A stretch of 64,000 nt of DNA, taken from positions 31,946,432-32,010,431 of the forward strand of contig NC_090411.1 of the NCBI RefSeq assembly GCF_036365525.1, written 5' to 3'. Shown piece after piece: positions 714 to 61,124 of this stretch. How positions within the stretch are numbered: position 1 is the first letter of the stretch; every line of letters begins with the position of its first letter. The position numbers and the translations under genes were made by a program. This DNA is from Heterodontus francisci. Its lineage: Eukaryota. The notes beneath the pieces are model-generated. The model ran no database searches. It was not told the origin of the DNA and saw only the letters and a program-made list of their open reading frames with translations.

Positions 714-2931
714 ATGATGGCCTCTCAAGTGTGTCAGAACTACCACAAGGACTGTGAAGATGCTGTTAACAAGCAAATCAACCTGGAGCTCTATTCCTCC
801 TATGTTTATCTTTCCATGGTGTGTATTGTTTTCTTGGGGTCCTATTTCAAAGTTAAGAATGAATTTCAATGCATTTTTGAGTAGCGAGAATTTTTCTAGG
901 CCAATCAGTTGGGTTTATAATTTATCTCTCTCGTTCCCCCGAGACTTAAATCAGTGAACACCCTTGAAATAAGGACTCTATTCCTTGCTCTATAATATTT
1001 ATGTCCAATTTTGAAAGTAACTCCGAGGTTCCATGAAGTTTCTAATAGAGGATTCATGTTGAAGATGTATAAATCTAGTCATCATTTCCAACTTGGATGG
1101 CAACAATTAAGTTCAGTAACTAGTTAGTGAAACATTGTCTGTCTTTCCCCTTTTTTTTTTGTAAATGAGTAAATTTTGTGGTGTTGAGCTCCTTCTTTGT
1201 TTTGTATGAGGAGTAATGATCTTGCATGAAGCAGTAATCTAAGTCTTTCTCTACTGAATGAAGAGAGAAAAAAACTCACTTGCATCTTCATTGGGGGGAC
1301 AAGGGATGTCCTGCTGATAATTATAGCTTGAATGATGAAATGCAACTTTGATCCAAATAGTATTCCTGCCTTCTGTAATGTCACAGGGAGGGGCATTTCA
1401 ACATATTTAGCATTTTATAGCATAAACTTCAAAAACCAAGCCCCTTAATTGAAAGCAAATTCTTCTGAGGTAAAGAATGGGTGACTTATTTACCATGATG
1501 TTGCTACCATTTTTGACTTGGCCATAAATGAGATTGGGTCTGACGCCCTGTCCTTTTCATTTTGCTTCTACCTGCAGTCCTATTACTTTGACCGGGATGA
1601 TGTTGCCCTGCGTCACTTTGCTGAGTTCTTCAAGGAGCAGTCACATGAGGAACGGGAGCACGCTGAGAAACTGATGACATTCCAGAATAAACGTGGAGGC
1701 CGAATCATCTTGGAGAACATCAAGGTTGGATTTTGAACTTGGAGTCTATGATCTAACTTGGATACTTTCAGAGAATATTCCTTATTCTAATGTCAGCTCT
1801 CCATCTGGTGAGGTTGAGTAAAATTCCAAATGTTGGTGAGTGGCTGCAGGATGAGTTGGTATGACTGATCTTTGCCTCTTCTATAGATACAAAATCAATA
1901 AATGGATATTCAGAAGGAACAATTTCTGCATCAAAAGCCATTGGCTCAAACATATGGTGCCTAACTAGGTAACAGTCTGGAGAATGTGGGCCACAGCTCT
2001 AGACTTCCTGTGGATGAAGTTGATGTTAAAAGGATGCGGAGAAAGGAACATTGGAGCATATTCGGGGTAATTGGGATTAGAGCTTTGGCCAAAAATGGCA
2101 GAGCAATGAACAGATCCTGTGTCCTGTAATGGTCTGTCAACCCAGTGGTTAAACCCCATTCCTCACAATGGTCCCTTGTAGTATTGAGGTGCACAGATTA
2201 TCTTTGTTGTTGCTAACTTTGTTGACCTTGAGCATAACATCCCTTGGACTTTGCACTCCCACTAATAGGACCACTATTCTGTTCCAGAAGCCAGAGCAGG
2301 AAGAGTGCAGCAATGGTTGGGAGGCAATGCAGAGAGCTCTGCAGATGGAAAAGGATGTGAACCAGAGACTGCTGGATCTACACAAACTCTCCACTGGCAA
2401 CACTGACCCTCATGTAAGTTCCTAACATTGCAATTATTCATGAGTTAGTGATATTGGAATCTACCCTTCACTCTACATTGGTAAAATTCTGTGTCAGTTT
2501 GTTTTTCACTTTCAGATTTTTGTTTCTGGGCCAAGAAGCCATCTATAATGTAGACCTGGATCACTAAACTGTTCCCAAGGCACTTTGTATCTGCAGCATT
2601 AAAATGTTTCTAGTGCAGTCCATTCCCCATTTATTAAAATTGATTTGCCATTTCTGGGTAATTCTGCTCTTGTCTAGTTAAATGTGCACATGTCACACTG
2701 TCCCAATTCCAAACAAGTGTAATTTCACTTCTGGAAAAGATCCTCATTAAACATCTGTTTGGCATTTTCTATTTCATGTTCTAGTTGTGTGATTTCCTGG
2801 AGACTCACTACTTGGATGAACAAGTGAAGATGATCAAGAAGCTTGGAGATCACATCACCAACCTGAAGAGACTGGGAGCTCCTGACAATGGCATGGGAGA
2901 GTACCTGTTTGACAAGCACACGTTGAGTTGA
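714..2931 (+). CDS. fth1: Ferritin heavy-chain-like gene G1, intact, 174 aa; exons 714-818, 1578-1724, 2288-2413, 2785-2931
   Basis: Spliced translation [174 protein letters not shown]. Exon sizes 105/147/126/147 nt, GT-AG, typical vertebrate ferritin gene layout. Ferroxidase residues E27, Y34, E61, E62, H65, E107, Q141 (human H numbering) are present. Exact H versus M orthology needs a tree. Confidence 0.95.
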
Positions 2932-2970
2932 TTAGCATTCTAGAGTCATTAGTTCTATAATATTGGTTGA

Positions 2971-3036
2971 AATAAAATGTGTTCCATTTCTGGTTAATAT
3001 GTAGTTTTCTCATCGCTTGCAATATGTGGAAATAAA
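2971..3036 (+). terminator. Tandem polyadenylation signals of G1 (AATAAA at 2971 and 3031)
   Basis: Two AATAAA 40 and 100 nt after the stop, followed by a T-rich tract. Both are present in G1, G3, G4, G6, G7, G10; only the distal one in G2, G5, G8, G9. Confidence 0.7.
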
Positions 3037-5771: not shown

Positions 5772-7655
5772 TAAAGGCCTGCTACCCGACCCTAACACGA
5801 CAGGACCCGACAACATGTTGGGTACAGTCGGGTTAGGTCGCTCTTTTGTGTCCGGCTTTCGGGCACTTTGGGCAAGAAGTGTTCAAAGTAAAAAACCTAC
5901 CTGAGCTGGGGGTCCGGGACGTCTGTGTCTGATGAGTCAGTACTCCACCATGTTGAACACCACTTGGAGGAAGCACTGAGGGTGGCAAGAGCACAAAATG
6001 TATTCTGGGTGGGGGTCTTCAATGTCCATCACCAACAGTGGGCCATCAGCAGCAGCAGAATTGTACTCAACCACAATCTGTAACCTCATGGCCTGGCATA
6101 TCCCCCACTCTACCAATAGCAATAACCTGCTCAGTGACGCTCAGTTTGGGTTTCGCCAGGGCCACTCAGCTCCTGACCTCATTACAGCCTTGGTTCAAAC
6201 ATGGACAAAAGAGCTGAACTCAAGAGGTGAGGTGAGAGTGACTGCCCTTGACATCAAGGCAGCATTTGACCGAGTATGGCATCAAGGAGCCCTAGCAAAA
6301 CTGAGGTCAATGGGAATCAGGGGGAAAACCCTCCGCAGGCTGGAGTCATACCTAGCGCAAAGGAAGATGGTTGTGGTTGTTGGCGGTCAATCATCTGAGC
6401 TCCAGGACATCACTGCAGGAGTTCTTCAGGGTAGTGTCCTAGGCCCAACCATCTTCAGCTGCTTCATCAATGACCTTCCTTCAATCATAAGGTCAGAAGT
6501 GGGGATGTTCGCTGATGATTGCACAATGTTCAGCACCATTCGTGACTCCTCAGATACTGAAGCAGTCCGTGTAGAAATGCAGCAAGACCTGGACAATATC
6601 CAGGCTTGGCTGATAAGTGGCAAGTAACATTCGCGCCACACAAATGCCAGGCAATGACCATCTCAAACAAGAGAGAATCTAACCATCTCCCCTTGACATT
6701 CAACGGCATTACCATCGCTGAATCCCCCACTATCAACATCCTAAGGGTTACCATTGACCAGAAACTAAACTGGAGTAGCCATATAAATACCGTGGCTACA
6801 AGAGCAGGTCAGAGGCTAGGAATCCTGAGGCGAGTAACTCACCTCCTGACTCCCCAAAGCCTGTCCACCATCTACAAGGCACAAGTCAGGAGTGTGATGG
6901 AATTTTCTCCATTGCCTGGATGGGTGCAGCTCCAACAACACTCAAGAAGCCCGACACCATCTAGGACAAAGCAGCCCGCTTGATTGGCACCCCATCTACA
7001 AACATTCACTCCCTCCACCACCGACGCACAGTGGCAGCAGTGTGTACCATCTACAAGATGCACTGCAGCAATGCACCAAGGCTCCTTAGACAGCACCTTC
7101 CAAACCCGCGACCTCTACCAACTAGAAGGACAAGGGCAGCAAATGCATGGGAACACCACCACCTGCAAGTTCCCCTCCAAGTCACACACCATCCTGACTT
7201 GGAACTATATCACTGTTCCTTTACTGTTGTTGGATCAAAATCCTGGAACTCCCTTTCTAACAGCACTGTGGGTATACCTACCCCAAATGGACTGCAACGG
7301 TTCAAGAAGGCAGCTCACCAGCACCTTCTCAAGGGCAATTAGGGATGGGCAATAAAAGCTGGCCTAGCCAGTGACGCCCACATCCTTGAATGAATTTTTA
7401 AAAAGTCTGCACAGTGAGCGAGTGAGCTTCCCTATGACGTCATCATGCTCAACCTGCAGCTTCCTGCAGATTGGGAGTCGCAAGGTAGGTAAAAGGAACA
7501 TTCCGGTAGTCAGGTTGGCTTCGGGTCGGGTCAGGCTCGGGTCAGGTCGGGCGTGGGAAGAAAATGGAGGGACTCGGGCCGGATCAGGCTCGGGTCCGAT
7601 CTGGTTCTGTTGGGTTCGCATTGGGATATTTTTTCATGACCTAAGCAGGCCTTTA
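5772..7655. mobile_element. Non-autonomous hAT-type MITE (434 bp when uninterrupted)
   Basis: 12-bp TIR TAAAGGCCTGCT...AGCAGGCCTTTA, 8-bp TSD GTGTGAGG (5764-5771 and 7656-7663), subterminal CCCGA/TCGGG repeats. Empty site with a single GTGTGAGG at approx. 39883. Confidence 0.85.
5924..7403 (+). mobile_element. Younger CR1/L2-group LINE fragment (internally deleted) inserted in the MITE
   Basis: RT motifs QFGFRQGHSA, ALDIKAAFDRVWH, GVLQGSVLGP, MFADD; few frameshifts; 3' tail ..gacgcccacatccttgaatgaa. Absent from the other MITE copies. Confidence 0.9.
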
Positions 7656-8477: not shown

Positions 8478-10691
<2,214 letters not shown>

Positions 10692-12564
10692 TTGGGGTTC
10701 TACAACTATTAATTCTGTACTCGCTGAATGCTTTTTGATTGCCAGTTTTCTCATTCCTTGCTGTATATGGAAATAAAAGTATTCATCATGGAGCTGATCT
10801 TTGTATTATTCAGTAGCTGATTTGATTATTCAGATCATTATGCCTAGTTATATAATGATTCCATTTAAACCTTTTCCCTCTCCCAAGCCAGCCTCCCAAC
10901 CTTGGTTCAATGCCTGCTGAGGATAACTTACTCACATCTCCCAATTTGCATTGAGAAGCTTGTGGAGGGTATCTGAAATATGCAGTTTCTGCTACAGAAG
11001 TGTTCTTGCTGCTGTAGATGAAATATTATGAACTTGTGGAATATTGGGAAAGGATACCCAATTAGTACTTGCATGTGACCTTTTTGTCCACTTATTATAG
11101 TCTAGAATTAACCATCTTAATCTACCATTTGTTTAATATCTCTACCCTTATTCACCAAATGGGTATGTTTACCAATGTCCAGCTTGAGTACAGGGAGATG
11201 CGTGGGTCAGGTAGTAAGAGACCCCTACGAATTGAGATCCTAAATCTTCCCTCAAAATAGACTTGCACTTTGTAGCAAGTGCACTGTGACTTTACAGGTC
11301 TTAAATTCCATGGGGATTATGCTCCAGCTCTACAGCATGATGCAGAGCAACAATGTTCACTTTAAAGCTTCTCCATATTCTATTTCCCTAATTTGTTGGT
11401 TGGGTTGTAGAATCAGTGTGGCTCACTTTCCATCTTTTGTGGTCAAGGGTGGTATCCCTGATGTGGTCTAGACCCACCTGGGGTAACATCAATTTTCCAA
11501 GCCATCTTAATTTGGATTGAATTATGCAAAATGGGATTTCCATTAACAAACTCATACAATTACACTATGAATTGCTGATTCTGAACAGATTCAGTTTGAG
11601 GAAAGCCAACACCAAATACATCATGGACAAGGTTCAACACAAGAGATAAGGAAAAATGGAAGCCTGTGCAATTGGAGGAAATTTTCAAATATGGGTGGAG
11701 ATTTGGTTCTGAAATAGGAGAGAGTAGGAATAATGGATATGTACTCCAAACTATGGCTCGTCATCCTTTCCTGGGATCTATACTGGGGCCTCAGCATTTT
11801 GTTATATTTTTATCTGATATCAATAAAGGAATAGAGTGCAGTATATGCAAATTTGTTGATGCCACTATGTTGGGTAGCGCAGTTAGTAGTGTAAATTGGA
11901 GCAGAAATTTGCAAAGGGACATTGATAGATTAAGTGAAATTAAGCAAAAAAGTTATGAATGATGGAGTTTAATGTGAAGACAAGGTTCCAAGTACAGAAA
12001 TTAATAAGAACTAGTGGACAGATACAAAAAAAACTGAAGAAACAAAATCAATGTTCGTCTCTCTAGAGGTCTGAAAATCAAAGTGGTGGAGGTTATGTTA
12101 CAGTTGTATAAAGCTTGGGGTTAACCACATCTGAAGTACTGTGTTCATTCAGTTCTATTGGCCTTGGGGGCACAGCACTGATTCACCAGAATGATACCAG
12201 GGCTAAATGACTTAAATTATAAGGTCACTTTGCACAGTCTGTATTCCCTGGAGTATTGAAGATTAAGGGATGATTATAATTGAGGTGTTGAAGATAATTA
12301 ATGGGTTTAATAATGTAGATAGAAACTATTTCCTCTGGAACAGATTCAGATTAGGCAATTCAGGGATGATATTAGGAAGCATTTCTTCACAACAAGGAAT
12401 ATTGAAATCTGGAACTCTCTTCCCCAAAATGGATCAAGTCAACATTTCAAAATTGATGTTGTTAGGTTTTTGTGAGTTAAGATCATGAAATCATATTGAA
12501 CCAAGGCAGGTAAATGGCATTAAGACACAGAGCAGCCATGATCTAATTGAATGGTGGAACAGAC

Positions 12565-16813
<4,249 letters not shown>

Positions 16814-17984: not shown

Positions 17985-19676
17985 TTAGATAAGGGAACGA
18001 GTAGAGCCCATATGGGACCAAAGTGGCAATCTGTGTGCTGCCAGAGGATATCAGTGAGGACTTAAATGATTATTTTTCATCTGTGTTCACTATGGAGAAG
18101 GACAATGTAGGTGCAGTGAGGGGATCGGGATATACTCGAACAAACTAGCATTGAAAGGGAGGAGGTATGCACAGTTTTAGCAGGCTTAAAAGTACAGAGG
18201 GACCTTGGTATATTTGTCCATAGATCACTGAAGGTAGCAGCCCAGGCCCAGATGAAATGTATCCCAAACTGTTATGTGAGGTAAAGGAGGAGATAGCAGG
18301 AACTCTGGCCACAGGACAGGTGCCAGAGGACTGGAGGACAGTGAATGTGGTTCCATTGTTCAAGAAGGGAAGCAGGGATAAACCAGGTAATTACAGGCCA
18401 GTGAGTCGAACATCAGTGGTTGGGAAACTATTGGAAACAGTTCTGAGGGACAGGATTAATCTCCACTTGGAGAGCAAGGGATTAATCAAGGATAATCAGC
18501 ATAGCTTTGTCAGGGGGAGATCATGTCTAACAAACTTGATAGAACTTTTTGAGGGGTGACTAGATGCGTAGATGAGGGTAAAGCAGTGGATGTAGTCTAC
18601 ATGGGCTTCAGTAAGGCTTTTGATAAGGTCCCGGAAGGGAGATTGGTTAAGAAGGGAAGAGCCCATGGGATCCAGGACAAATTGGATCTAAAATTGGCTT
18701 AGTGGCAGGAGGCAGAGGGTGATGGTCGACGGTTGCTTTTGCGATTCGAAACCTGTGACCAGTGGTGTACCACAGGGATCGGTGCTGGGACCCTTGCTGT
18801 TTGTAGTGTACATTAATGATTTAGATGCAAATATAGGGGTTATGATCAGTAAGTTCGCAGATAACACGAAAATTGGTGCTGTCGTAAATAGTGAAGAGGA
18901 ACGTCTTAGATTACAGGACGATATGGATGGGCTGGTAAGATGGGCAAACCAGTGGCAAATGGAATTTAATACTGAGAAGTGTGAGGTGATGCATTTTGGG
19001 AGGACTAACAAGGCAAGGGAATATACAATCGGTGGTAGGACCCTATGAAGTACAGAGGGTCAGAGGGACCTTGGTGTACTTGTCCATAGATCACTGAAGG
19101 CAGCAGCACAGGTAGATAAGGTGGTTAGGAAGGCATATGGGATACTTGGCTTTATTAGCCGAGGCATAGAATATAAGAGTAGGGAGGTTATGATGGAGCT
19201 GTATAAAACGCTAGTTAGGCCACAGCTGGAGTACTGTCTACAGTTCTGGTCGCCACACTATAGGAAGGATGAGATTGCACTGGGGAGGGTGCAGAGGAGA
19301 TTCACCAGGATGTTGCCTGGGCTGGAGCATTTTAGCTATGAAGAGAGACTGGATAGGCTAGGGTTGTTTTCCTTGGAGCAGAGAAGGCTGAGGGGGGACC
19401 TGATTGAGGTATACAAAATTATGAGGGGCATAAATAGGGCAGATAGGAAGAAACCTTTTCCCTTAGCGGAGGTGTCAATAACCAGGAGGCACAGATTTAA
19501 GGGAAGGGGAAGGAGGTTTACAGAGGATTTGAGGAAACATTTTTTTAACCAAGAGGGTGGTTGGAATCTGGAACACACTGCCAGAAGGGGTGGTAGAGGC
19601 AGGAACCCTCACAACATTTAAGAAGTATTTAGATGAGCACTTGAAATGTCATAGCATATTAGGCTACGGGCCAAGT
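17985..19676 (+). mobile_element. Younger CR1 LINE ORF2 (RT and C-terminal part) between G3 and G4
   Basis: VPEDWRTVNVVPLFKKGSRDKPGNYRPVS, SGVPQGSVLGPLLF, SKFADNTK, LVRPQLEYC. Confidence 0.92.
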
Positions 19677-21647
19677 TTGGGTATGAAGCAATATGGAACC
19701 AATGCAGGTAAATGGCCTTAAAACACAAACCATGATCTAATTGAATGGTGGAACAGGCTTGAGGGGCTGATTGGCCTCCTCCTGTTCCTATGTTCCAATC
19801 ACAGTATCATCATCCAAACCTGCCTGTATTCCACTGCTCTCATTGTCTCTGGGTCCAACCCCTCAGCCCGTCTACATTGTCAATTGGTGCCTGGATTCAT
19901 GAACGATTCCTGACTGGCTACCTGGAATTGTCAATCATCATTAATGATGTCATTCCCTGTTTGAATGCAGGCTGTTCCAGCAGTATAAATACAAGAGCTT
20001 GTGTAGGAAGTAGTTGGATTGTTGTTATTGGAACTGGGCTTTTGTTAGTAGTAAAGATTATGATGGCCTCTCGTATGTCAGAATTACCACAAGGACTGTG
20101 AAGATGCTGTTAACAAGCAAATCAACCTGGAGCTCTATTCCTCCTATGTTTATCTTTCCATGGTGTGTATTGTTTTCTTGGGGTTCTGTTTCAAAGTTAA
20201 GATTGGAATTTCAATGCATTGAGAATCTAGAATTTCTCTAGGCTAATCAGTTGGGTTCATAATCTTTTTCTCTAGTCCTCCCTTGACTTAAATCTGTGAA
20301 CACCCTTGAAGCAGAGACCCTGTTCCTTGCTCTGTAATATTTGTGTTCAATTTTTGAAAGTTATTCCAAGGTTCTGTTTGGTTTCCAATAGAGGATTCAT
20401 TTTGAAGATGTATAAACCTAGTTATCTTTTCCAACTTGGATGGCAACTATTAAGTTTAGTGAAACTTTGTCTGATTAGTTCTGGTCTGTCTTTACTTTTC
20501 CCCCTTTGTAAATGAGTAAATCTTGTGATGCTGAACTCTTTTTTTTTTTTTTTTGTATGAGGGATAATCTTGCATGAAGCAGTCATCTACTGATTTGTTT
20601 TTTTTTCTTCAATCATTTAAATATTCATTGGGGGACAAAGGATGGCCTGCTGAACAATAGTTTGAATGCTGAAATGGAATTTGGATCCAAATAGTATTAT
20701 TGCTTTTTGTAATGTCACAGGGAGGGGCCTTTCAACATACTTGGTGTTTTACAGCATAAACTTGAAAAACCAAGCCCCTTTAATTGAAAGCAAACTCTTT
20801 TGATGTAAAGAATGAGTGATTTATCTACCATGATATTACTACCATTTTTGACATGGCTGCCAATGAGTTTTGGGTCTGGCTTCTCTCTCTTTCCATTTTG
20901 CCTCTACCTGCAGTCCTATTACTTTGACCGGGATGATGTTGCCCTGCGTCACTTTGCTGAGTTCTTCAAGGAGCAGTCACATGAGGAACGGGAGCACGCT
21001 GAGAAACTGATGAAATTCCAGAATAAACGTGGAGGCTGAATCATCTTGGAGAACATCAAGGTTGGGTTTTTAACATGAAGGAGTCTATGATCTAACTTGG
21101 ATACTTTCAGAGAATGTTCCTTGTTCTAATAACTTCAGTTCTCCATATGGTGAGATTAAGGAGTAAAATTTCTAGTGTTGGTGAGTGGCTATAGAATGAG
21201 TTGGTATGGCTGATCTTTGCCTCTTCTATAGATATAAGGTCAATAAATGGATATTCAGAAGGAACAACTTCTGCATTGTGAAGTATTGGCTCAAACATAA
21301 ATGTCAGTTATACAGGCCCTTTGCCCATCATTTCTGAGACAACCATCAAGCATTGATCTATTCTAATCCTATTTTCCAACACTTGGCCCCTTGCCTTGCA
21401 TGTTATGGCATTTCAAGTACACAACGAAACACTAAAATGATGAGGGTTCCTGCCTCTACCACCCGTTCAGTGTTCTAGATTCTAACAGCCCTTTGGGTGA
21501 AAACATCTTTCTTCAAATCCCCACTAACCCTCTTGCCCCCTTCCATTAAGTCTATGCCTCCTGGTTATTGATCCCTCTGCTAAAGGAAAAAGTTTCTTCC
21601 TATCTTTTGTATTAATGCCCCTCATAATTTTGTATACCAGTCAGCTT

Positions 21648-21652
21648 CCCCC

Positions 21653-21683
<31 letters not shown>
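21648..21683. repeat. Poly-C tract
   Basis: About 30 consecutive C, at the position of a short G-run of the CR1 consensus-like sequence. Confidence 0.9.
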
Positions 21684-24084
21684 ACCCTTCGCTCTGAGAA
21701 AAACAACCCTAGCCTATCCAGTCTCCCTTCATAGCTGCAATTCTCCAGCCCAGGCAGCATCCTGATGAATCTCCTCTGCACCCTCTTGTGCAATCTCATC
21801 CTTCCTATAGGGTGGTGACTGGAACTGTACACTACTCCAGCTGTGGCCTAACTAGCATTTTATACAGCTCCATCACAATCTCCCTGCTCTTTTATTCTAT
21901 GCCTCGGCTAATAAAGGCAAGTATCCCATATGCCTTCCTAACCACCTTATCTACCTGTGCTGCTACCTTCAGTGATCTATGGACAAATATACCAAGGTCC
22001 CTCTCACCCTCTGTACTTCCTAGGGTCCTGTCTCCCATTGTATATTCCCTTGCCTTGTTAGTCCTCCCAAATACATCACCTCGCACGTCTCAGGATTAAA
22101 TTCCATTTGCCACTGCTCCACCCATCTTACCAGCCCATTATATCATCCTGCAATCTAATACTTTCCTTCTCACTATTTACAACACCACCAATTTTCATGT
22201 CATCTGCAAACTTACTGATTGTACCTCCTATATTTGTGTGAAAATCATCAACGTATGTTACGAACAGTCCCAACACTGATCCCTGCAGTGCACCACCAGT
22301 CACAGGTTTCCACTCGCAAAAACAACCCTTGACCATCACCCTCAACCTCCTGCCACTAAGCTGATTTTTGGATCCAAATTGCCCTGGATCCCATGGGCTC
22401 TTACCACCTTAACCAATCTCCCTTCTGGGACCTTTATCAAAAGCCTTACTGAAGTCCATGTAGACTACATCAACTGCTTTACCCTCATCTACACATCTAG
22501 TCACCACCTCAAAATTCAATCTAGTTTTAGACTCTATCTCTCCCTAGCAAGGCCATGCTGACTATCTGATTAATCTGTGCCTCTCCAAGTGGAGATTAAT
22601 CCTGTCCCTCAGAATATTTTCCAATAGTTAACCTAGCACTGATAAACTCACTGGTGTGTAATTACCTGGTTTATCCCTGCTACCCTTCTTGAATAATGGT
22701 ACCAGATTTACTGTCCTCCAGTCCTCTGGTACTTCTCCTGTGGCCAAAGATGTTTTGAAAACTTCAGAGCCCCTGCTATCTCCCCTCTTGCCTCACATAA
22801 CAGCCTGGGGTACATCTCATCTGGGCCTGTGGATTTATCCACTTTTAAGCTCGCTAATACTTCCTCCCTTTCAATGCTAATTTGTTCAAGTATATCACAA
22901 ACCCCCTCCCTGATCTCTACACCTACGTCGTCCTTCTCCCAGAGTGAACACAGATGAAAAGTAATCATTTAAAAGCTCACTATGTCCTCTGGCTCCACAC
23001 AGATTGTTACTCTGGACCCTAATGGGCCCTACTCTTGCCCTGGTTATCCTCTTGCCCTTAAATTCCAAGGTGTTTTAAAAGTATTTTTTCTCTATCTTGC
23101 TGGCCAGTGTTTTTTCATGTCCCTTTGCTCTTATTACATTAAGTACTTCTAGACTCTGTTTACTCCGCTAAGGCCTCCACTGTTTTCAGCACTTTGAATC
23201 TGCCGTAAGCTTATTTTTTTTCCTTACCCAATCCTCTAAATCCCTTGAGATCCAGGGTTCCCTGGACTTGTTGGTCCTACCTGCCACCTTTTATGGGAAC
23301 ATGTTGGCCCGAACTCACTATTTGCTTTTTTTAATGACTCCCACTGCTTTGTTGAAGTCTTTCCTACAAGTAGCTGCTCCCAGTCCACTTTGGCCAGATC
23401 CTGTTTCATTGTAATTGGCCTCTCCCCACTTTTTTTATTTCCCCCCCCCAACCCCCATTAGTACTTTTATTTGCAGTCCCTCATTGTCCTTTTCCATAAC
23501 TACCTTAAATCTTCAAGTTATGGCCACTATCTCCAAAATGCTCCCCCACTGACACTTCTACCACCTGTCTGGTTTCATTCTCCAGGATTAGGTCCCATAC
23601 CGTTCTCTTGTGGGACTTCCCATGTGCTGGCTCAAAAAGCTCTCCTGCATGCACTAAGAATTCTGCCCCTTTAAGCCTTTTGCATTAAGACTATCCAAGT
23701 TGATATTGGGGAAGTTGAAATCCCCTACTATTACCCTATTTTTACACCTGAGATTTGCCTACATATCTGTTCCTCTATCTCCCTGACTGTTTAGAGGCCT
23801 GTAGTACACTCCAAGTGATTGCCCCTTTTGTTTTTAAATTCTACCCATATGGCCTCATTTGAGGAACCTAAGATATCATCCCTCTTTACTGCAATAATTG
23901 ACTCCTTGATCAACAGGACAATGCCACCTCTTTTACACCTGCCCCTGTCATGCCTGAAGATTCTGTACCCTAGAATATTGAGCTGTCAGTCATTCCCTTC
24001 CCTCAACCATGTTTGTGATTGCAACAATATCACTCATGTGTTAATCAATGCCCTCAATTCATCTGCCTTAGTAGGAAGAACCCT

Positions 24085-24428
24085 GGGCAGTGCAGTGGTT
24101 AGCACCACAGCCTCAGCTCCAGCAACCTGGGTTCAATTCTGGGTACTGCCTGTGTGGAGTTTGCAAGTTCTCCCCGTGTCTGTGTGGGTTTACTCCGGGT
24201 GTTCTGGTTTCCTCCCACATGCCAAAGACTTGCAGGTTGATGGGTAAATTGGCCATTATAAATTGCCCCTAGTATAGGTAGGTGGTAGGGAAATATAGGG
24301 ACAGGTGGGGGATGTGGTAGGAATATGGGATTAGTGTAGGATTAGTATAAATGGGTGGTTGATGGTCAGCACAGACTCGGTGAGCCAAAGGGCCTGTTTC
24401 AGTGCTGTATCTCTAAACTAAACTAAAA
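24085..24428 (+). mobile_element. Full-length HE1/V-SINE nested in the antisense CR1
   Basis: A-box cagtggttagca, B-box gggttcaattc, V-domain, (ctaaa)n tail. Confidence 0.88.
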
Positions 24429-25732
24429 CAGATGCAATCCAACATGCATTTTCCCCTTGTGCCTCAACAGATCTATATTTGCTCTGCCTTCCAGACTGAC
24501 TCAATTTCTTCTATATTTGACTATGCATCGCTCCCTACTGTAACTTCTCTATCCCATCCCCCTGCCAAATTAGTTTAAACTCCAGCGCCACCACCCCTTT
24601 TCCCCCACCCCACTCCCCAACAGCACCAGCAAACTTCCTAACAAGGATCTTGGTCCTGTTCAAGTTGGATGGATTGCATCTGAACAGGTCCCACCTTTGC
24701 TAGAAACTGACCCAGGAGTCTGGAGACTAAAGCTCTCCCTCTTGCACCACCTCAGCCATGCATTCCTGTGCTCTATCCTCTCATTCCTATACCCACAAGC
24801 ATGTGGCACCAGGAATAATCCAGAGATTAAACCTTTGAGGTACTGCTTTTAATCTGCTGCCTAGCTCCCTAAATTCTTGGTGTTTAATGAGGTAACAGTC
24901 TGGAGAATGTGGTCTACAGTTGTAGACTTCCCATGGACAAAGTTAAGGATTTGGAGAAAGAGAAAATGGAGCATATTTGGGTGAATTGGGGTTGGAGCTT
25001 TGGCCAAAAATGGCAAAGCACACTCAATGAACTGATCCAGTCTCCTCCAATGGTCCCTCATAGTATTGGGTTGTACAGATTATCTTTGCTGCTAACCCTG
25101 TTGACCTTGAGCATAACATCCCTTGGACTTTGCACTCCCACTAACAGGACCACTATTCTGTTCCAGAAGCCAGAGCAGGATGAGTGGAGCAATGGTCTGG
25201 AGGCAATGCAGAGAGCTCTGCAGATGGAGAAGGATGTGAACCAGAGTCTGCTGGATCTGCACAAACTCTCCAGTGGCAACACTGACCCTCATGTAAGTTA
25301 ATATTGGAATGAGTTTTCAGGTTTGAAGGTGATGATTAGAATCTACCCTTAACTCTGGTAGCATTCCATAAGTTTTTTTGTCTTATTTTTAAAAAAAAAC
25401 CAAAACATCCACACTAGATCTTGATCACTCAACAGTTTGCAAGGTACTTGGTTTCTCTGGCATCAATCTTGACTTGACTCCCAGTTTAATGGAATTGATT
25501 TGCCACATGTGGGTAAATTTAGGCTTTGTCTGGTTAAATATATCCACAGAATCTGAATGATTTCCTTCTGTGCTGACCACTTGGCCCACTGCTTGTGCTT
25601 CTTTCTCTCGAGAAAGTCTCGCTCCCATGTGCAGTACTTGTGCCATTATCCCAGTGCAAATAAAAATCTTATCCAATGAAGATTCTTGCTTTTTTTTAAG
25701 CTAACTATACTCACCTGTTTCTCATGTTCTAG

Positions 25733-25876
<144 letters not shown>

Positions 25877-28019: not shown

Positions 28020-29456
28020 TGTTATAACGGTGCTGCTACATTTCTTGTTGGTTTTGTTTGGTAGACTCATATTTTAGATTTATGGACATTGTTTTATTTT
28101 GGGAAAACTGAAAAGGATTCTATGGATTTTCTTGTCATTGTGGTCATTGAAAGGGCACTGAGAGGATTTGTGGTGAACAACCCTCACTGGCAGTCTCCAG
28201 TCTTCAGATAAATATCCCAGCAGGGGCTTTTTGACTTGGAGAAGATGTTTACAGAGAAGTGACAGGTCAAGATTTATAGGGGTCAGGAGGCTTGACTCTT
28301 GAGATATTGTTTTTGATTTTGCTTTGAACAGTGTGTTGGAGTGTGAACTGTTTTGAAGACAATTGGAGAAAACCAGCCAAGAGAGCAGTCACCATCAGCA
28401 TCCTCTTCTATCTTTTTGAGAACTTCCTGTGAATTAAGTGTAAGAAATAGGGAAACTAATATTGCATGTCTCCTGAAAAGACTGCCAGAAACCCTGATGG
28501 CGCATTTCACGTGGAAAACATACCAAACCGATCTTCAATGTCGCCTGAAAAGAACTGTTCTGGAAAGATCCCAGTGGCAGCAGTCTACATGTATTTGGGA
28601 CACCAAACCAAAAAAGGGACAACAGACATTTTTCTGTATCTTCTCTTTTTTCTTCAAGAATTAACAATATTTGGGCAAAGTATTCTTTTTTGCCTTTTTT
28701 GTAACAGAGCTCTAAAAAGAAAATCTCTCTTTCTGGTTATCCAGTGTGTGTGTGTATGTGTCTGTGTGAGGTAAAGACCTGCTACCCGACCCTAACACGA
28801 CGGGACCTGACGACATGTGTCGGGTACAGGTCGGGTCGGGTCGCTCATTTGGGTGCGGCTTTCAGGCACTTCAGGTAAGAAGTGTTAAAAGTAAAAAACC
28901 CAGCTGAGGTGGGAGTCCGGGACGTCAAAGAGGGAAACTCTAAGTCTGCGCAGTGAGCGAGTGAACGTCCCTTTGACGTCATCACGCTCATACTGCAGCT
29001 TCCTGCAGATTGGGAGTCGCAAGGTAGGTAAAAGGAACATTCCGGTAGTTGGGTTGGGCTCAGGTCGGTTTGGGCTGGGTCGGGGTCGGGCTCGGGTCAG
29101 GGCATGGGAAGAAAATGGAGGGACTCGGGCCGGATGGGGCTCGGGTCAGATGTGGTTCTGTTGGGTTTGCATCGGGTTTTTTTTCGTGACCTGAGCAGGC
29201 CTTTAGTGTGAGGGGCTAAGATAAAAGGGAACTTCCATATTTCAATCTGTGTGTTACTGGTTAAGTCTTGTTTTATAATTAACTGATAATTTTGTTGTTT
29301 ATTAAAGAAACCTGGTTGGTGTATTTTATTTTGGGGTAAAAATAGAGTCTATGATTGACCATATTGGTAACTGGGTAAACATTTAAATATATGTTGTGAC
29401 CTGTGGAGAAGTGGAACTAGAAAAAACAATGCCCTCCTCCCACCTCAGTCAGAACA
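28020..29456. mobile_element. Solo-LTR-like element with hAT MITE (28772-29205) inside old CR1
   Basis: Paralogous to 5023-7906; same TIR and TSD, no nested LINE. Confidence 0.75.
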
Positions 29457-35007: not shown

Positions 35008-36971
35008 ATGGTTTCCCAAGTGTGACAGAACTACCACAAGGACTGTGAGGATGCTGTTAACAAGCAGATTAACCTGGAACTCTATTCCTCCTATGTTTAC
35101 CTGTCCATAGTGAGTTTTGTATGTTTTGGGGTCCTAATTCAAAATTCAGGCTGTGACTTCATTGTATGCTGTTGTTTAATGAATTGGCTTTTGGATGTAT
35201 CTCAATAGCTCTCCCTAGACTTAATCCAGTGGATTATATTTAATAGTAATTCTGTAGAAGCTCTCATTAACAGACTGCTCCTGGCTCTGTAGTTGTCTTA
35301 TTCGGAGATATTTTATACCTGAAACCAGCTCCATGGTTCCATGAAGCTTGTAATTGAGGATTCATCTTGAAGTATTAACTTGGTCAAATTTGTAACTTGG
35401 ATGACAACAATTAACTTTAATTGAGTGACTCGTGAGTGAAATATGGACTGGCTTTCTCTTTTTACTAATTGAGTGAAATTCTTTGAATCCTCGGTCACGG
35501 AACCTGGATCTTGGTACTTGATTGTGCCAAAATGTTAAACTGCTCAATCTGCAAAGTTTTACTTTTTTTTTAATTTAAATCCCTGAATTGGGGAAAGAGA
35601 TTGTTCAAGGAGGGGGAGGAGGGAACAATGTCCCACTGAAATTTGAGCTTTCAACCTGCACTTGGACCTCTAATAGATTCTACCAAAAAATATCATGGAT
35701 CCCTCTTGTCTAATTTTAGCCACTTGCCTTGTTTCTACTTCACGAGGAGGGACTTTCAACCTTTTCAGAAAAGATTAATGAAGCCAATTGTGCTTTCTGT
35801 AAGAATCATACTTTCTCCCTTAAACTGTAAATGCTTTCAAAAGCAAGGTATTGAAGTCATGAATGGGTATTTCATCTACTATGATACAGCCACCATTTTT
35901 GATGTGACCATGGAGGGAATTTTGGATGTGACCTGGCTTCTTCAATTTTTTTTTTTGTCTCTACCTGCAGTCCTATTACTTTGATCGGGATGATGTTGCC
36001 CTGCGTCACTTTGCTGAGTTCTTCAAGGAGCAGTCACATGAGGAATGGGAGCACGCTGAGAAACTGATGAAATTCCAGAATAAACGTGGAGGCCGAATCA
36101 TCTTGGAGGACATCAAGGTTGGGTTTAATGAATGAGTGACCTCCTGTCTGGATCCCTGTAAATTGATGCTTTAGAAAGTATTTGAAAGAATTGATTCCAT
36201 GGTTTAATGCAGTAATTGTATACATTTGTGACCCACTAGTTGCTTTTCCCCATTGTTCACCTTCTACTTTCTCATGTGTTTTTATTTTAATCCATTGTAA
36301 GTGAACTGTCTGACTTTCCTCTTCAGAAGCCAGAGCAGGATGAGTGGAGCAATGGTCTGGAGGCAATGCAGAGAGCTCTGCAGATGGAGAAGGATGTGAA
36401 CCAGAGTCTGCTGGATCTGCACAAACTCTCCACTGGCAACACTGACCCTCATGTAAGTTCCTAACATTGCAATTTTTCATGCATTGGTGATATTGGAATC
36501 TGCCCTTCACTCTACATTGGTAAACTTCTGTGTCAGTTTGTTTTTCATTTTTAGATTTTTGTTTTTGGGCCAAGAAGCCATCTACGCTGTAGACCTGGAT
36601 CATTAAACTGTTCCCAAGGCACTGTGTATCTGCAGCATCAAAATGTTTCTTGTGCAGTCCATTCCCTGTTTTATTAAAATTGGTTTGCCATTTTTGGGTA
36701 ATTCTGCTCTTGTCTGATTAAATGTGCCCATGTCACACTGTCCCAATTCCAAACCAGTGTAATTTCCCTTCTGGAGAAGATCCTCATTAAACACCTGTTT
36801 GGCATTTTCTATTTCATGTTCTAGTTGTGTGACTTCCTGGAGCCTCTCTACTTGGAGGAGCAAGTGAAGATGATCAAGAAGCTAAGAGATCACATCACCA
36901 ACCTGAAGAGACTGGGAGCCCCTGACAATGGCATGGGAGAGTACCTGTTTGACAAGCTCACCCTGAGTTGA
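35008..36971 (+). pseudogene. Ferritin pseudogene G6 (type B, short intron 2); exons 35008-35109, 35971-36117, 36327-36452, 36825-36971
   Basis: In-frame TGA at codon 6 (35023-35025, MVSQV*QNY). Exon 4 is altered ([22 protein letters not shown]); the frame is otherwise open. Confidence 0.88.
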
Positions 36972-40695: not shown

Positions 40696-43635
<2,940 letters not shown>

Positions 43636-47800: not shown

Positions 47801-50587
47801 ATGATGGCATCTCAAGTGTGTCAGAACTACCACAAGGACTGTGAAGATGCTGTTAACAAGCAAATCAACCTGGAGCTCTATTCCTCCTATGTTTATCTTT
47901 CCATGGTGTGTATTGTTTTCTTGGGGTTCTGTTTCAAAGTTAAGACTGGGATTTCAATGTATTTTGAGTAGATAGAATTTCTGTAGGTCTCACAGCTCCA
48001 GCGACCTGGGTTCAATTCTGGGTACTGCCTGTGTCGAGTTTGCAAGTTCTCCCTGTGTCTGCGTGGGTTTCCTCCAGGTGCTCCAGTTTCCTCCCATATG
48101 ACAAAGACTTGCAGGTTGATAGGTTAATTGGCCATTATAAATTGCCCCTAGTATAGGTCGGTGGTAGGGAAATATAGGGACAGGTGGAGATGTGGTAGGA
48201 ATATGGGATTAGTGTAGGATTAGTGTAAATGGGTGGTTGATGGTCAGCACAGACTCGGTAGGTCGAAGGGCCTGTTTCAGTGCTGTATTTCTAAACTTAA
48301 ACTAAATATTAATTGGGTTTATAATGTATCTTTCTAGTTCTCCTAGACTTAAATCAGTGAACACCCTTGAAACAGGGACTCTATTCCTTGCTCTGTAATA
48401 TTTATGTCCAGTTTTGAAAGTAACTCCAAAGTTCCGCGTGGTTTCCAATAGAGGATTCACGATCATGTATAAACCTATTCAACTTGAATGGCAACAATTA
48501 CGTTTAGTGACTAGTTAGTGGAACACTGTCTTTCCCCCTTTGTAAATGAGTAAATCCTGTGGTGCTGAATTCTTTTGTTTGAGTAATGAATTTGCATGAA
48601 GCAGTAATTGAAAAGTCTCATTCAGTCCAATAAGACTTTTAGATCACTTGTCTCTTCATTGGTGGACGAAGGATGTCCTGCTGATAAATGTAGTTTAAAT
48701 GCTGAAATGAAACTTGGATCCAAATAGTGTTACTGCTTTTAGTAATGTCACTGGGAGGAGCATTTCATCACGGTTAGTATTTTACAATATTAACTTGAAA
48801 AACCAAGCCCCTTAATTGAAGAAAATTCTTTTGAGATAAAGAATGGATGATTTACCAGGATGTTATTTTTAACATGACCATGAATAAGATTTGGGTCTGA
48901 CCTCTCCCTTTCCATTTTGCCTCTACCTGCAGTCCTATTATTTTGACCGGGATGATGTTGCCCTGTGTCACTTTGCTGAGTTCTTCAAGGAGCAGTCACA
49001 TGAGGAACGGGAGCACGCTGAGAAACTGATGAAATTCCAGAATAAACGTGGAGGCCGGATCATCTTGGAGGACATCAAGGTTAGATTTAATAAGCCGCTC
49101 CCTTCAACAGATTGGACTGCAGTTTTGATTCGATAGGATAAAAGCAAAATACTGCAGATGCTGGAAATCTGAAATAAAACCAAGAAATGCTGGAACCACT
49201 CAGCAGGTCTGGCAGCATCTGTGGAAAGAGAAGCAGAGTTAACGTTTTGGGTCGGTGACCCTTCTTCGGAAATCCGGAATGTTAACTCTGCTTCTCTTTC
49301 CACAGATGCTGCCAGACCTGCTGAGTGGTTCCAGCATTTCTTGTTTTTATTTCAGATTTCCAGCATCTGCAGTATTTTGCTTTCATCCTATGTTCCTTTA
49401 TTCTAATGTCAGTACTCAATCTAGAGTTTAATGAGTAAAATTTCTAGTGTTGGTGAGTTGGTATGACTGACCTTTGTCTCCTATATTTATAAAATCAATA
49501 AATGGATTTTCAGAAGGAACAACGTCTGCTTTGTCAACCATTGGCTGAAACATACAGTGCTTAACTAGGTAACAGTCTTGAGAATTTGGGCCACAGCTGT
49601 AGATGTCCCTTAGATGTAGTTGAGGATTATGAAGGAGAAAAAGAAAATTTAGCATATTTGGGGGAATTGGGATCAGAGCTTTGGCCAAAAATGGCAGTGC
49701 AGAGGCAATGAACTGATCCAGTGTCCTGTAATGGTCTGTCAACCCAGTGATTAAACCCCATCCCTCATAGTATTGGGGTGCACAGATTGCCTTTGCTGCT
49801 AACATTGTTGACCTTGAGCATAACATCCCTTGGACTTTGCACTCCCACTAACAGGACCACTATTTTGTTCCAGAAGCCAGAGCAGGATGAGTGGAGCAAT
49901 GGTCTGGAGGCAATGCAGAGAGCTCTGCAGATGGAGAAGGATGTGAACCAGAGTCTGCTGGATCTGCACAAACTCTCCACTGGCAACAGTGACCCTCATG
50001 TAAGTTAATATTGGAATGAGCTTCCAGGTTTGAAGGTGATGATTAGAATCTGCCTTTAACTCTGGTAGCATTCCATAAGTTTTTTTTTTTGTCTTCATAT
50101 TTAAAAACCAAGACATCCACACTAGATCTGGATCACTGAACAGTTTGCAAGGTACTTGGTTTCTCTGGCATCAATCTTGACTTGACTCCCAGTTTAATGG
50201 AATTGATTTGCCACATGTGGGTAAATTTAGGCTTTGTCTGGCTAAATATATCCACAGAATCTGAATGATTTTCCTTCTGTGCTGACCACTTGGCCCACTG
50301 CCTGTGCTTCTTTCTCTCGAAAGTCTCGCTCCCATGTGCAGTACTTGTGCTATTATCCCAGTGCAAATAAAAATCTTATCCAATGAAGATTCTTGCTTTT
50401 TTTAAGCTAACTATACTCACCTGTTTCTCTTATGTTCTAGTTGTGTGACTTCCTGGAGACTCACTACTTGGATGAGCAAGTGAAGATGATCAAGAAGCTT
50501 GGAGATCACACCACCAACCTGAAGAGACTGGGAGCTCCTGACAATGGCATGGGAGAGTACCTGTTTGACAAACACACGCTGAGTTAA
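47801..50587 (+). CDS. fth1: Ferritin heavy-chain-like gene G8 (sister of G5), intact ORF; exons 47801-47905, 48933-49079, 49874-49999, 50441-50587
   Basis: Open frame to TAA. Variants VALCHF, GNSDPH, DHTTNL. Shares the intron-1 SINE, intron-2 palindrome and TACAAATA box with G5. Confidence 0.92.
47989..48306 (+). mobile_element. 5'-truncated HE1/V-SINE in G8 intron 1
   Basis: Same site and truncation as in G5. Confidence 0.88.
49133..49391. mobile_element. About 259-bp palindromic insertion in G8 intron 2 (probable Penelope-like)
   Basis: ataggataaaagcaaaatactgcagatgctgg...ccagcatctgcagtattttgctttcatcctat; sister of 31392-31646. Confidence 0.7.
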
Positions 50588-51840: not shown

Positions 51841-52161
51841 AATAGGACTGCAGGTAGAGACAAAAAAAAAATTGAAGAAAGCCAGGTCACATCCAAAATT
51901 CCCTCCATGGTCACATCAAAAATGGTGGCAGTATCATAGATGAAATACCCATTCATAACTTCAATACCTTGCTTTTGAAAGCATTTACAGTTTAAGGGAG
52001 AAAGTATGATTCTTACACAAAGCACAATTGGCTTCATTAATCTTTTCTGAAAAGGTTGAAAGTCCCTCCTCATGAAGTAGAAACAAGGCAAGTGGCTAAA
52101 ATTAGACAAGAGGGATCCATGATATTTTTTGGTAGAATCTATTAGAGGTCCAAGTGCAGGT
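51841..52161 (-). pseudogene. Inverted remnant of a G6-type ferritin gene (3' part of intron 1, splice acceptor, first 7 nt of exon 2)
   Basis: Reverse complement matches about 35652-35977 (cctgcacttggacctctaatag...ctacctgcag/tcctatt). Confidence 0.9.
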
Positions 52162-54396: not shown

Positions 54397-57007
<2,611 letters not shown>

Positions 57008-59177
57008 TTGGGGTTCTGCAACAATTAGTTCTATACTTTCTGAATTCTTTTTGATTGCCAGTTTTCTCATCTCTTGCTGTATATAGAAATAAAAGTATTT
57101 ATCATGGATCTGATCTTTGTATAATTCAATAGCTGACTTGATTATTCAGATCATTATGCCTAGTTATATAATGATTCCATTTAAACCTTTCCCTGGCCAG
57201 CCTCCCAAACTTGGTTCAATGCCTTCTGAGGATAACTTACTCACATCTCCCAATTTTCATCGAGAAGCTTGGAGAGGATATCGGAAATATGCAGTTTCTG
57301 CGACAGAAGTGTTCTTGCTGCTGTAGGTGAAGTAGCATGAACTTGTGGAATATGGGGAAAAGATACCCAATTTCTACCTGCATATGACCTTTTTGTCCAC
57401 TTATTATAGACAAGAATTAACCACCTTTAATCTGCCATTTGATTAACTAATATCTGTACCCCTAATTCACCTAAAGGGTATGTTTACCAATGTCTAGCCT
57501 CAGTACAGGGAGATGCTTGGGTGAGGTAGTAGGAGACCCCTACGAGTTGACCTCCTAAATCTTCCCTCATAATAGTCTTGCACGTTGCAGAAAGTGCACT
57601 GCGACTTTACAGGTCTTAAATTCCATGGGGATTGTGCTCCATCTCTCCAGCGTTATGTGGAGCAACAATGATCACTTTAAAGCTTCTCCATTTTCTATTT
57701 CCCTAATTTGCTGGTTAGGTTGCAGAGTCAGTGTGGATCACTTTCCATCTATTGTGGGCAAGATTGGTATCCCTGGCTTGGTCTAGACCCACCTGGAATA
57801 CATCAATTTTCCAAGCCATCTTAATTTGGACCCAACTGTGCAAAATGGAATTTCCATTAACCAACTCATACAATTACATTATTAATTACTGACTCTGAAC
57901 AGATTCAGTTTGAAGAACGCCAATATCAAATACATCATTGACAAGGTTCAACACAAGAGGTTAGGGAAAAATGGAAGCCTGTGCAATTGGAGGAAATCTT
58001 TCACTGGGTGGAGATTTGGTTTTTGAGGTGGGAGACAGAGAGTAGGGATAATGGGTATGTACTCCAAACTATGGCTCGTCATCCTTTCCTGGGATCTATA
58101 CTGTGGCTTCAGCTTTTCATTATATTTATAAATGATATCGATGAAGGAATAGAGTGCAGGATATGCAGGTTTTCTGATGCCACTATGTTGGGTGGCACAG
58201 TTAGTGTAAACTGGAGCAGGAATTTGCAAAGGGACGCTGATAGAGTAAGTGAGTGTGAAAAATTATGAATGATGGAGTTTAATGTGAAGTTAAGGTTCCA
58301 TGGACAGAAATTAATCAAAACCAGTGGACCAAAACAAAACAAATTGAAAAAACAAAATCAATGTTCATCTCTCACGAGGGCTGAAAATCAAAGTGGTGGA
58401 GGTTATGTTACAGTTGTATAAAGCTCAGGGTTAACCACATCTGAAGTACTGTGTTCATTTTGATCTGTTGGCCTTGGTGGGGGAACAGCACCAATTCACC
58501 AGAATGATACTCAGGCTAAATGATAAGGTCACTTTGCACTGACTGGTATGTATTCCTTCGTGTATTGAAGATTAAGTGATGATTATAATTGAGCTGTTGA
58601 AGATAATTAATGGGTTTAATAACGTAGATAGAGAGAAACTATTTTCTCTGGGACAGGGCTTCATCTTCAGATTAGGCAATTCAGGGATGATATTGGAAAG
58701 CATTTCTTCACAACATGGGAAAATAGAAATCTGGAACTCTCTTCCCCAAAATGGATCAAGTCAACATTCAAAATTGATGTTAGGTTTTTGTGAGTTAAGG
58801 TCATGAAATCATGAACCAAGGCAGGGAAATGGCATTAAGACACAGAGCAGCCATGATCTAATTGAATGGTGGAACAGACTTGAATTGGCCTCCTCCTGTT
58901 CCTTTGTTCCAATCACAGAATAATCTTGTAAATCAACCTGCACTCCACATCCCTGATTGGCTCTGGGTATCTCACCCCACCCGCTGCTCCTTAATTGGTG
59001 CCTCGAGGCATGGAGGATTCCTGACTGGCTATCAGGGATTGTCAATCATCATTGGTGATGTCATTCCCTGTTTGAATACAGGCTGATCCAGTTGCATAAA
59101 TACAAGAGCTTGTGAGGGAAGTGGTTAGATTGCTGTTGTTGTGTTTGATTTAACTTCTGTCAATATTAGAAGTGAAG

Positions 59178-61124
59178 ATGGTTTCCCAAGTGTGACAGAA
59201 CTACCACAAGGACTGTGAGGATGCTGTTAACAAGCAGATTAACCTGGAGCTCTATTCCTCCTATGTTTACCTGTCCATGGTGAGTTTTGTATGTTTTGGG
59301 GTCCTAATTCAAAATTCAGGCTGTGACTTCATTGTATGCTGTTGTTTAGTGAATTGGCTTTTGGATGTATCTCAATAGCTCTCCCGAGACTTAATCCAGT
59401 GGATTATATTTAATAGTAATTCTGTAGAAGGTCTCATTAACAGACTGCTCCCGGCTCTGTAGTTGTCTTATTCGGAGATATTTTATACCTGAAACCAGCT
59501 CCATGGTTCCATGAAGCTTGTAATTGAGGATTCATCTTGAAGTATTAACTTGGTCAAATTTGTAACTTGGATGACAACAATTAACTTTAATTGGGTGACT
59601 CGTGAGTGAAATATGGACTGGCTTTCTCTTTTTACTAATTGAGTGAAATTCTTTGAATCCTCTGTCACGGAACCTGGATCTTGGTACTTGATTGTGCCAA
59701 AATGTTGAACTGCTGAATCTGGAAGGTTTTACTTTTTTTTAATTTAAATCCCTGAATTGGGGAAAGGGATTGGTGAAGGAGGGGGGGGAGGGAAGAATGT
59801 CCCACTGAAATTTGAGCTTTCAACCTGCACTTGGACCTCTAATAGATTCTGCCAAAAAATATCATGTTTCCCTCTTGTCTAATTTTAGCCACTTGCCTTG
59901 TTTCTACTTCATGAGGAGGGACTTTCAACCTTTTCAGAAAAGATTAATGAAGCCAATTGTGCTTTGTGTAAGAATCATACTTTCTCCCTTAAACTGTAAA
60001 TGCTTTCAAAAGCAAGGTATTGAAGTCATGAATGGGTATTTCATCTACTATGATACAGCCACCATTTTTGATGTGACCATGGAGGGAATTTTGGATGTGA
60101 CCTGGCTTCTTCAATTTTTTTTTTTTGTCTCTACCTGCAGTCCTATTACTTTGATCGGGATGATGTTGCCCTGCGTCACTTTGCTGAGTTCTTCAAGGAG
60201 CAGTCACATGAGGAACGGGAGCACGCTGAGAAACTGATGAAATTCCAGAATAATCTTGGAGGACATCAAGGTTGGGTTTAATGAATGAGTGACCTCCTGT
60301 CTGGATCCCTGTAAATTGATGCTTTAGAAAGTATTTGAAAGAATTGATTCCATGGTTTAATGCAGTAATTGTATACATTTGTGACCCACTAGTTGCTTTT
60401 CCCCATTGTTCACCTTCTACTTTCTCATGCGTTTTTGTTTTAATCCATTGTAAGTGAACTGTCTGACTTTCCTCTTCAGAAGCCAGAGCAGGATGAGTGG
60501 AGCAATGGTCTGGAGGCAATGCAGAGAGCTCTGCAGATGGAGAAGGATGTGAACCAGAGTCTGCTGGATCTGCACAAACTCTCCACTGGCAACACTGACC
60601 CTCATGTAAGTTCCTAACATTGCAATTTTTCATGCATTGGTGATATTGGAATTTGCCCTGCACTCTACATTGGTAAACTTCTGTGTCAGTTTGTTTTTCA
60701 TTTTTAGATTTTTGTTTTTGGGCCAAGAAGCCATCTACGCTGTAGACCTGGATCATTAAACTGTTCCCAAGGCACTGTGTATCTGCAGCATCAAAATGTT
60801 TCTTGTGCAGTCCATTCCCTGTTTTATTAAAATTGGTTTGCCATTTTTGGGTAATTCTGCTCTTGTCTAGTTAAATGTGCCCATGTCACACTGTCCCAAT
60901 TCCAAACCGGTGTAATTTCCCTTCTGGAGAAGATCCTCATTAAACACCTGTTTGGCATTTTCTATTTCATGTTCTAGTTGTGTGACTTCCTGGAGACTCT
61001 CTACTTGGAGGAGCAAGTGAAGATGATCAAGAAGCTAAGAGATCACATCACCAACCTGAAGAGACTGGGAGCCCCTGACAATGGCATGGGAGAGTACCTG
61101 TTTGACAAGCTCACCCTGAGTTGA
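59178..61124 (+). pseudogene. Ferritin pseudogene G10 (sister of G6); exons 59178-59279, 60141-60270, 60480-60605, 60978-61124
   Basis: TGA at codon 6 (59193-59195) plus a 17-nt frameshifting deletion in exon 2 near 60252 (exon is 130 nt rather than 147). Confidence 0.93.

Follow-up and report, generated by a model that had tools for sequence, protein, structure and literature searches.

The window analysed here is a 64-kb stretch of the Heterodontus francisci genome (NCBI RefSeq assembly GCF_036365525.1, contig NC_090411.1, positions 31,946,432 to 32,010,431 of the forward strand), and it is occupied by a tandem array of ferritin genes. Searching the window by blastn and tblastn with the exons of G1, the gene nearest its left end, we found ten complete four-exon ferritin sets between positions 714 and 61124, all on the plus strand (Table 1). 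Exon sizes are 105, 147, 126 and 147 nt across copies, with a coding exon 1 of 102 nt in the three copies whose start lies one codon later, and the borders of all 30 introns are GT-AG. Neighbouring genes start 4,383-9,979 nt apart. Seven copies (G1, G2, G3, G5, G7, G8 and G9) have open frames encoding proteins of 173-174 amino acids that are mutually 92.5-98.8% identical, and the frames of the other three (G4, G6 and G10) are broken. Between G8 and G9 lies a scar that is 97% identical to the last part of G6 intron 1 and 7 nt of exon 2. The DNA on its left corresponds to what precedes G6 and the DNA on its right to what follows G6; hence a gene resembling G6 has been lost at this point. The left end of the window (1-450) is spacer sequence with 87-92% identity to five internal spacers, and the 1,500 nt at its right end are spacer with 98.6% identity to the G6-G7 spacer; the array therefore continues beyond both ends. 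No non-ferritin flanking gene lies within the 64 kb. This layout agrees with a first-pass annotation of the same DNA, which had listed ten same-strand four-exon copies about 4.5-10 kb apart (seven intact copies and three pseudogenes, plus one scar) in an array running past both window ends. Gene structure and block matches also support the tandem segmental duplication of intron-containing genes that it proposed. A retrocopy (processed pseudogene) origin is rejected, because all ten copies have three introns.

Table 1. Positions of ferritin genes, spacers and associated features in the 64-kb window
Feature	Position	Strand	Details
G1 promoter and short 5′ leader	369-713	+	Equivalent before all ten genes; invariant blocks, TATA-like box, no iron-responsive element found
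G1 ferritin gene, open	714-2931	+	Alpha promoter; exons 714-818, 1578-1724, 2288-2413, 2785-2931
G2 ferritin gene, open	8478-10691	+	Alpha; exons 8478-8582, 9328-9474, 9983-10108, 10545-10691; R63W
Short spacer type (~2.16 kb)	10692-12860		Precedes beta genes; also 32848-35004 and 57008-59174; truncated after G8
G3 ferritin gene, open	12864-16813	+	Beta promoter; exons 12864-12965, 15246-15392, 15928-16053, 16667-16813
G4 pseudogene	20060-25879	+	Alpha; exon 1 lacks 2 nt; stop at codon 77; D131H
Long spacer type (3.7-4.2 kb core)	25880-30038		Precedes alpha genes; also after G1, G6, G7 and G10
G5 ferritin gene, open	30039-32847	+	Alpha; H60R, R63K
G6 pseudogene	35008-36971	+	Beta; stop at codon 7
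G7 ferritin gene, open	40717-43635	+	Alpha; young retroelement insertion of ~320 nt in intron 2 (42303-42622)
G8 ferritin gene, open	47801-50587	+	Alpha; ~97% identity to G5 block
Scar of deleted beta-type, G6-like gene	51841-52161	-	Inverted remnant made up of the last part of intron 1 and 7 nt of exon 2
G9 ferritin gene, open	54418-57007	+	Chimeric; H173L
G10 pseudogene	59178-61124	+	Beta; stop at codon 7 as in G6; 17-nt deletion in exon 2

Promoter and exon 1 together form two lineages, alpha (G1, G2, G4, G5, G7, G8 and G9) and beta (G3, G6 and G10), which are approximately 80% identical over 300 nt. Gene order along the array is alpha-alpha-beta, alpha-alpha-beta, alpha-alpha-(deleted beta), alpha-beta, which indicates a putative higher-order repeat of roughly alpha-alpha-beta. 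The spacers fall into a short and a long type, and no more than 30% of the G3-G4 spacer aligns with either of them. Duplicated blocks are 3-9 kb long, and the recent duplications show 0.4-3% divergence, summed over 500-column alignment bins. Further, G9 is a chimera, nearly identical to G7 from promoter to intron 3 and nearly identical to G5 in its 3′ flank. Block duplications together with such a chimera are the product expected of unequal crossing-over.

The open copies are under purifying selection. Pooled over their 21 pairs, pN/pS is 0.23 (Nei-Gojobori counts, uncorrected for multiple hits), and variant alleles comprise 29 synonymous and 22 non-synonymous changes, where 79% non-synonymous would be expected (p=2.6e-8). 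Divergence is unevenly spread along the genes. Mean pS is 0.09 over all 45 pairs, compared with 0.19-0.22 for introns, and between the alpha and beta lineages it stands at 0.34 in exon 1 and at 0.05, 0.03 and 0.09 in exons 2, 3 and 4. Fixed differences between the lineages amount to 7/100 in exon 1 and are absent from exons 2-4 (0/130, 0/126 and 0/144, or 0/400 in total), with 48/280 in the promoter and 22/113 and 10/90 in the introns flanking exon 2 (11-19%). Across seven copies (G8-G10 were dropped as recent duplicates), one of 26 four-fold sites in exons 2-3 is variable, compared with 262 of 402 flanking intron columns; the Fisher p of 2e-10 is overstated, because the sites are non-independent and diverged introns align poorly. 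Trees built for individual gene regions disagree with one another. The pattern indicates that exons 2-4 have probably been homogenised by exon-limited gene conversion, which would be the simplest cause given that synonymous sites in exon 1 have been free to drift.

The first-pass annotation had described the array as undergoing birth-and-death. Births and deaths are evident, in the form of three pseudogenes and one scar among ten or eleven units and a dead pair (G6/G10) that arose by duplication, and one could suppose that birth-and-death with strong purifying selection, acting on synonymous sites as well, would suffice without any conversion. The recent block duplications and the low pN/pS would sit comfortably with such a model. 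It is nevertheless unlikely, since by itself it fails to account for homogenised exons 2-4 beside divergent introns: the two lineages are far apart at synonymous sites of exon 1 and hardly differ in exons 2-3, the introns beside exon 2 keep their lineage-fixed differences, and the four-fold sites of exons 2-3 are nearly invariant. Birth-and-death and concerted evolution would both operate here, and the window is a clean case of probable exon-limited conversion alongside gene turnover.

All ten genes have a TATA-like box 63-81 nt 5′ of the ATG, and its position predicts a leader of roughly 35-55 nt. An upstream promoter block (369-458 in G1) carries two CCAAT boxes and occurs within the window only before the ten genes. 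This block resembles the tail found at the 3′ end of shark CR1-type retroelements, and it is possible that it was exapted from such a tail.

No iron-responsive element (IRE) was detected in the leaders, by scans run without a positive control. An Rfam scan of the window gave no IRE match at the gathering score, nor is there an IRE among the 12 weak matches (E up to 10), all of them below the gathering score; scans of the window at two thresholds returned no other credible RNA family. In none of the ten copies does the IRE loop motif CAGWG occur in the stretch from the TATA-like box to the ATG, and the sole IRE pattern match in the window falls in G3 intron 2. Four leaders were folded and none forms a stable hairpin, folding being no better than that of shuffles. 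Over the 400 nt upstream of the genes, no strong splice acceptor is apparent. Mammalian H and L ferritins are as a rule under IRE control (PMC11719527), and salmon H and M mRNAs all bear an IRE (PMC4117605). A short, TATA-proximal leader without an IRE suggests that the amount of ferritin made probably depends on transcription and copy number, and not on translation under the control of iron regulatory proteins (IRPs). The first-pass annotation, which had read the array as dosage amplification of iron sequestration, overlooked this absence, which bears directly on the dosage idea. Matches to motifs resembling the cytoplasmic polyadenylation element occur in the 3′ untranslated regions of just two of the ten copies, leaving cytoplasmic polyadenylation control unsupported.

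Residues are numbered here as in human H (codon + 2), and their spacing agrees with the residue lists given in PMC4117605 and PMC10114856. Judged from sequence alone, the ferroxidase residues E27, Y34, E61, E62, H65, E107 and Q141, claimed earlier for all intact copies, are present in all ten copies, as are E57, E64, E134 and E140. H60 occurs in nine copies, the open gene G5 having R60. Consequently, the mixed E57/H60 signature attributed to every intact copy stands for E57 and is not universal for H60. The mixed signature may be ordinary, since Glu57 likewise accompanies His60 in the H and M chains of amphibians.

The annotation's label of H-like is not established, because the copies hold the glutamates of M chains and M chains have been mislabelled before. 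The salmon paper defines an M chain by a ferroxidase centre plus two nucleation glutamates, and warns that such chains have been mis-described as H (PMC4117605). Both salmon M nucleation glutamates (Glu54 and Glu61) are found in all ten copies, as Glu at codons 55 and 62. The pair His57 and His60 tabulated for human H (PMC10114856) is not found, position 57 being Glu in every copy. Like teleost and amphibian M chains, which are described as orthologues of mammalian L, the copies combine ferroxidase spacing and both nucleation glutamates with several isoforms per genome and four exons, the latter structure being general for vertebrate ferritins (PMC4117605). Unlike the M chains listed there, they have His or Arg at the middle nucleation position, and unlike salmon M and H they have no IRE that we could find. 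With vertebrate FTH1 they share the full ferroxidase centre, Q58, H60 in nine of ten copies, and the 3-fold channel residues H118, C130, D131 and E134. They differ from FTH1 in having E57 where human H has H57, in their tandem multicopy arrangement, in the missing IRE and at position 144, which is Met in all ten copies. This position is Ala in human H and Ser in mitochondrial ferritin, where it affects iron oxidation, and it is variable among animal H chains (bioRxiv 10.1101/2025.03.31.646379). In frog M, the ferroxidase centre includes an Asp (D140) at the equivalent position (PMC10114856), unlike the Met of the window copies.

Ferritin clusters are already known from sharks. The Greenland shark is reported to have more than 150 ferritin copies, with 155 FTL and 179 FTH1 annotations, of which approximately 80% lie in three clusters and more than 85% are full length (Sahm et al., bioRxiv 10.1101/2024.09.09.611499); this preprint bears out the Greenland shark cluster that the first-pass annotation mentioned. 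The same source reports that the clusters are syntenic with the great white shark, that they exceed 100 copies, that the largest is expressed specifically in the ovary, and that the expansion is ancient and common to one short-lived and one long-lived shark. Like these clusters, the window packs ferritin genes, most of them full length, into a dense tandem array in a cartilaginous fish. It is very probably a stretch of this known kind of cluster, and we infer its identity with a published one. For a retroelement reading frame at 19049-19618, 620 relatives were recorded with E no higher than 1e-20, and the five best-ranked organism-named relatives among the 120 listed come from cartilaginous fishes (Chiloscyllium, Leucoraja, Mobula, Callorhinchus and Hypanus), which makes a cartilaginous fish the likely source. 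The contrast with mammals, for which the annotation had given a single intron-containing FTH1 and extra copies that are mostly retrocopies, is not unique to this array: the hadal snailfish has 14 fthl27 copies, mostly in tandem and expressed in most tissues (PMC10746142).

The expansion itself is not new, and having been reported in two sharks it adds little on its own. We came across no published mention of the missing IRE, the probable exon-limited conversion, the higher-order unit or Met144; these are what the window adds. The ferritin passage, discussion and comparative methods of Sahm et al. contain nothing on exon structure, IRE status, residues, a higher-order unit or a conversion test, and the word 'iron' is absent from their main text, although the supplements may hold more. 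The literature searched, which left out most subscription journals, yielded no paper that describes IRE loss, conversion or Met144 for the ferritins of sharks. A second Greenland shark preprint (10.1101/2025.02.19.638963, version 2025-02-22) does not mention ferritin, FTH, iron or ferroptosis, and a catshark genome paper (PMC11979771) mentions neither ferritin nor fth.

We consider it reasonably probable that the window is a slice of a chondrichthyan ferritin cluster that forms an IRE-less, probably oocyte-expressed battery kept for dosage. Copies would arise when blocks of one to three genes, roughly alpha-alpha-beta, undergo unequal crossing-over, and would be lost through point mutation or deletion. 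Gene conversion limited to exons 2-4 would hold the protein nearly uniform, leaving introns and spacers to drift. Output would be set by transcription and copy number instead of IRP-controlled translation, providing the ovary or oocyte with a bulk supply of self-sufficient ferritin, with both ferroxidase and nucleation residues, as an iron stock or buffer. Vertebrate ovaries are rich in ferritin transcripts (PMC1488847). The cytosolic ferritins of vertebrates provide the textbook example of IRE control; a large IRE-less battery, if real, would represent a different way to set iron storage, and would give a testable explanation of how the mother supplies shark eggs with iron.

Several points weigh against this reading. 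Ovary expression is claimed for only the largest of the three Greenland shark clusters (bioRxiv 10.1101/2024.09.09.611499). The transcription start is placed here from a TATA-like motif, and an unseen upstream exon may carry an IRE. Predicted from sequence, W93C in G1, R63W in G2 and G3, and H173L in G9 may be damaging, in which case working copies would number fewer than seven. The synonymous sites behind the conversion argument, at approximately 26-31 per exon, are few and non-independent. Finally, turtles, birds and a teleost also appear, at lower rank, among the 120 listed relatives of the retroelement frame at 19049-19618.

More tentatively, and as a possibility that we would not yet back, the cluster might be an ancient battery dedicated to the oocyte and run in the manner of histone or oocyte 5S arrays. 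It would be free of IRE/IRP control, perhaps with a promoter exapted from a retroelement tail, and conversion would keep more than 100 subunit genes compatible for co-assembly. Its ferritin, with an unusual Met at Fe2-site position 144, would then be tuned to the bulk iron loading of large yolky eggs, and not to iron-triggered detoxification.

Extra ferritin dosage could instead serve a general somatic role in stress resistance, longevity or antioxidant defence by limiting reactive oxygen species (ROS), as proposed for snailfish fthl27. The snailfish case, also a tandem amplification in a fish that was read as dosage, lends this some weight through its broad expression and through the reduction of ROS in 293T cells overexpressing fthl27 (PMC10746142). 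We regard such a role as improbable for the shark genes. Unlike the recent snailfish expansion of 14 copies, the shark clusters are reported as ancient and are approximately ten times larger, they are shared by one short-lived and one long-lived shark, and the largest is ovary-specific, though this comes from the Greenland shark and not from the window. Shark ferritin copy number should be read with caution, and not as a longevity trait.

That the array is a neutral by-product of a recombination-prone region, with one or two working copies only, seems very unlikely. Pseudogenes do make up 30% of copies, a dead gene has itself been duplicated (G6/G10), and an appearance of constraint could result if a few good copies act as donors in conversion. 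Neutrality is difficult to reconcile, however, with the copy-private changes in open genes, where 17 are synonymous and 14 non-synonymous, a depletion of the latter (p=4e-5), or with the promoter blocks at about -100 to -120 and -260 to -320, which show 2-5% mismatch compared with 14-34% in intron interiors.

Least probable of all is that part of the array is an assembly artefact of uncollapsed haplotypes or polishing homogenisation: differences are indeed few between G7 and G9 (13 of 3,000 aligned columns) and between the two versions of the G6/G10 block (109 of 7,168), but the short spacer exists in four versions (87-98% identity), more than two haplotypes can supply, G9 changes from G7-like to G5-like and lacks the G7 insertion, the two versions of the G5/G8 block are set apart by 205 of 7,126 aligned columns and by the loss of an entire gene, and private exon lesions persist. 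The four spacer versions led us to reject haplotypes as the main explanation; one two-gene block could be false, and eight genes would remain even after its removal.

Individual copies show further peculiarities. The private changes of G1 include W93C, L97W and S113R, and its exon 3 carries four private amino-acid changes, W93C and L97W among them; G1 may be decaying or escaping conversion. Recurrent changes at the CpG codons 7, 47, 61 and 77 convert Arg to Cys, His, Trp or stop in several copies, and R63W lies at a CpG codon in G2, G3 and G6. The observed/expected ratio of CpG in exons is 0.13-0.27, consistent with germline methylation. Tandem Repeats Finder returned two trivial rows only for the window. 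A segment of G8 intron 2 (49195-49329) is hairpin-like and gives sub-threshold Rfam miRNA matches (42.8 bits, with a gathering score of 82); it is probably a short inverted repeat.

Retroelements have entered the array at several points. A LINE reverse-transcriptase fragment at 5900-7450 (Pfam RVT_1, E=3.5e-22) is unique to the G1-G2 spacer. CR1-like copies at 17992-19680 and 21376-23041, 79% identical and inverted, flank exons 1-2 of pseudogene G4, whose intron 2 holds inserted repeats and extends to 4.1 kb. G3, the protein of which also carries R63W, has a retroelement piece inside intron 1. This 320-nt piece (14165-14484) is 99.7% identical to the insertion in G7 intron 2 (42303-42622), is missing from G9, and overlaps the 3′ end of a retroelement-like open reading frame of 270 amino acids (13619-14431). 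Its near-identity in two positions suggests a recently active LINE, presumably RTE-like.

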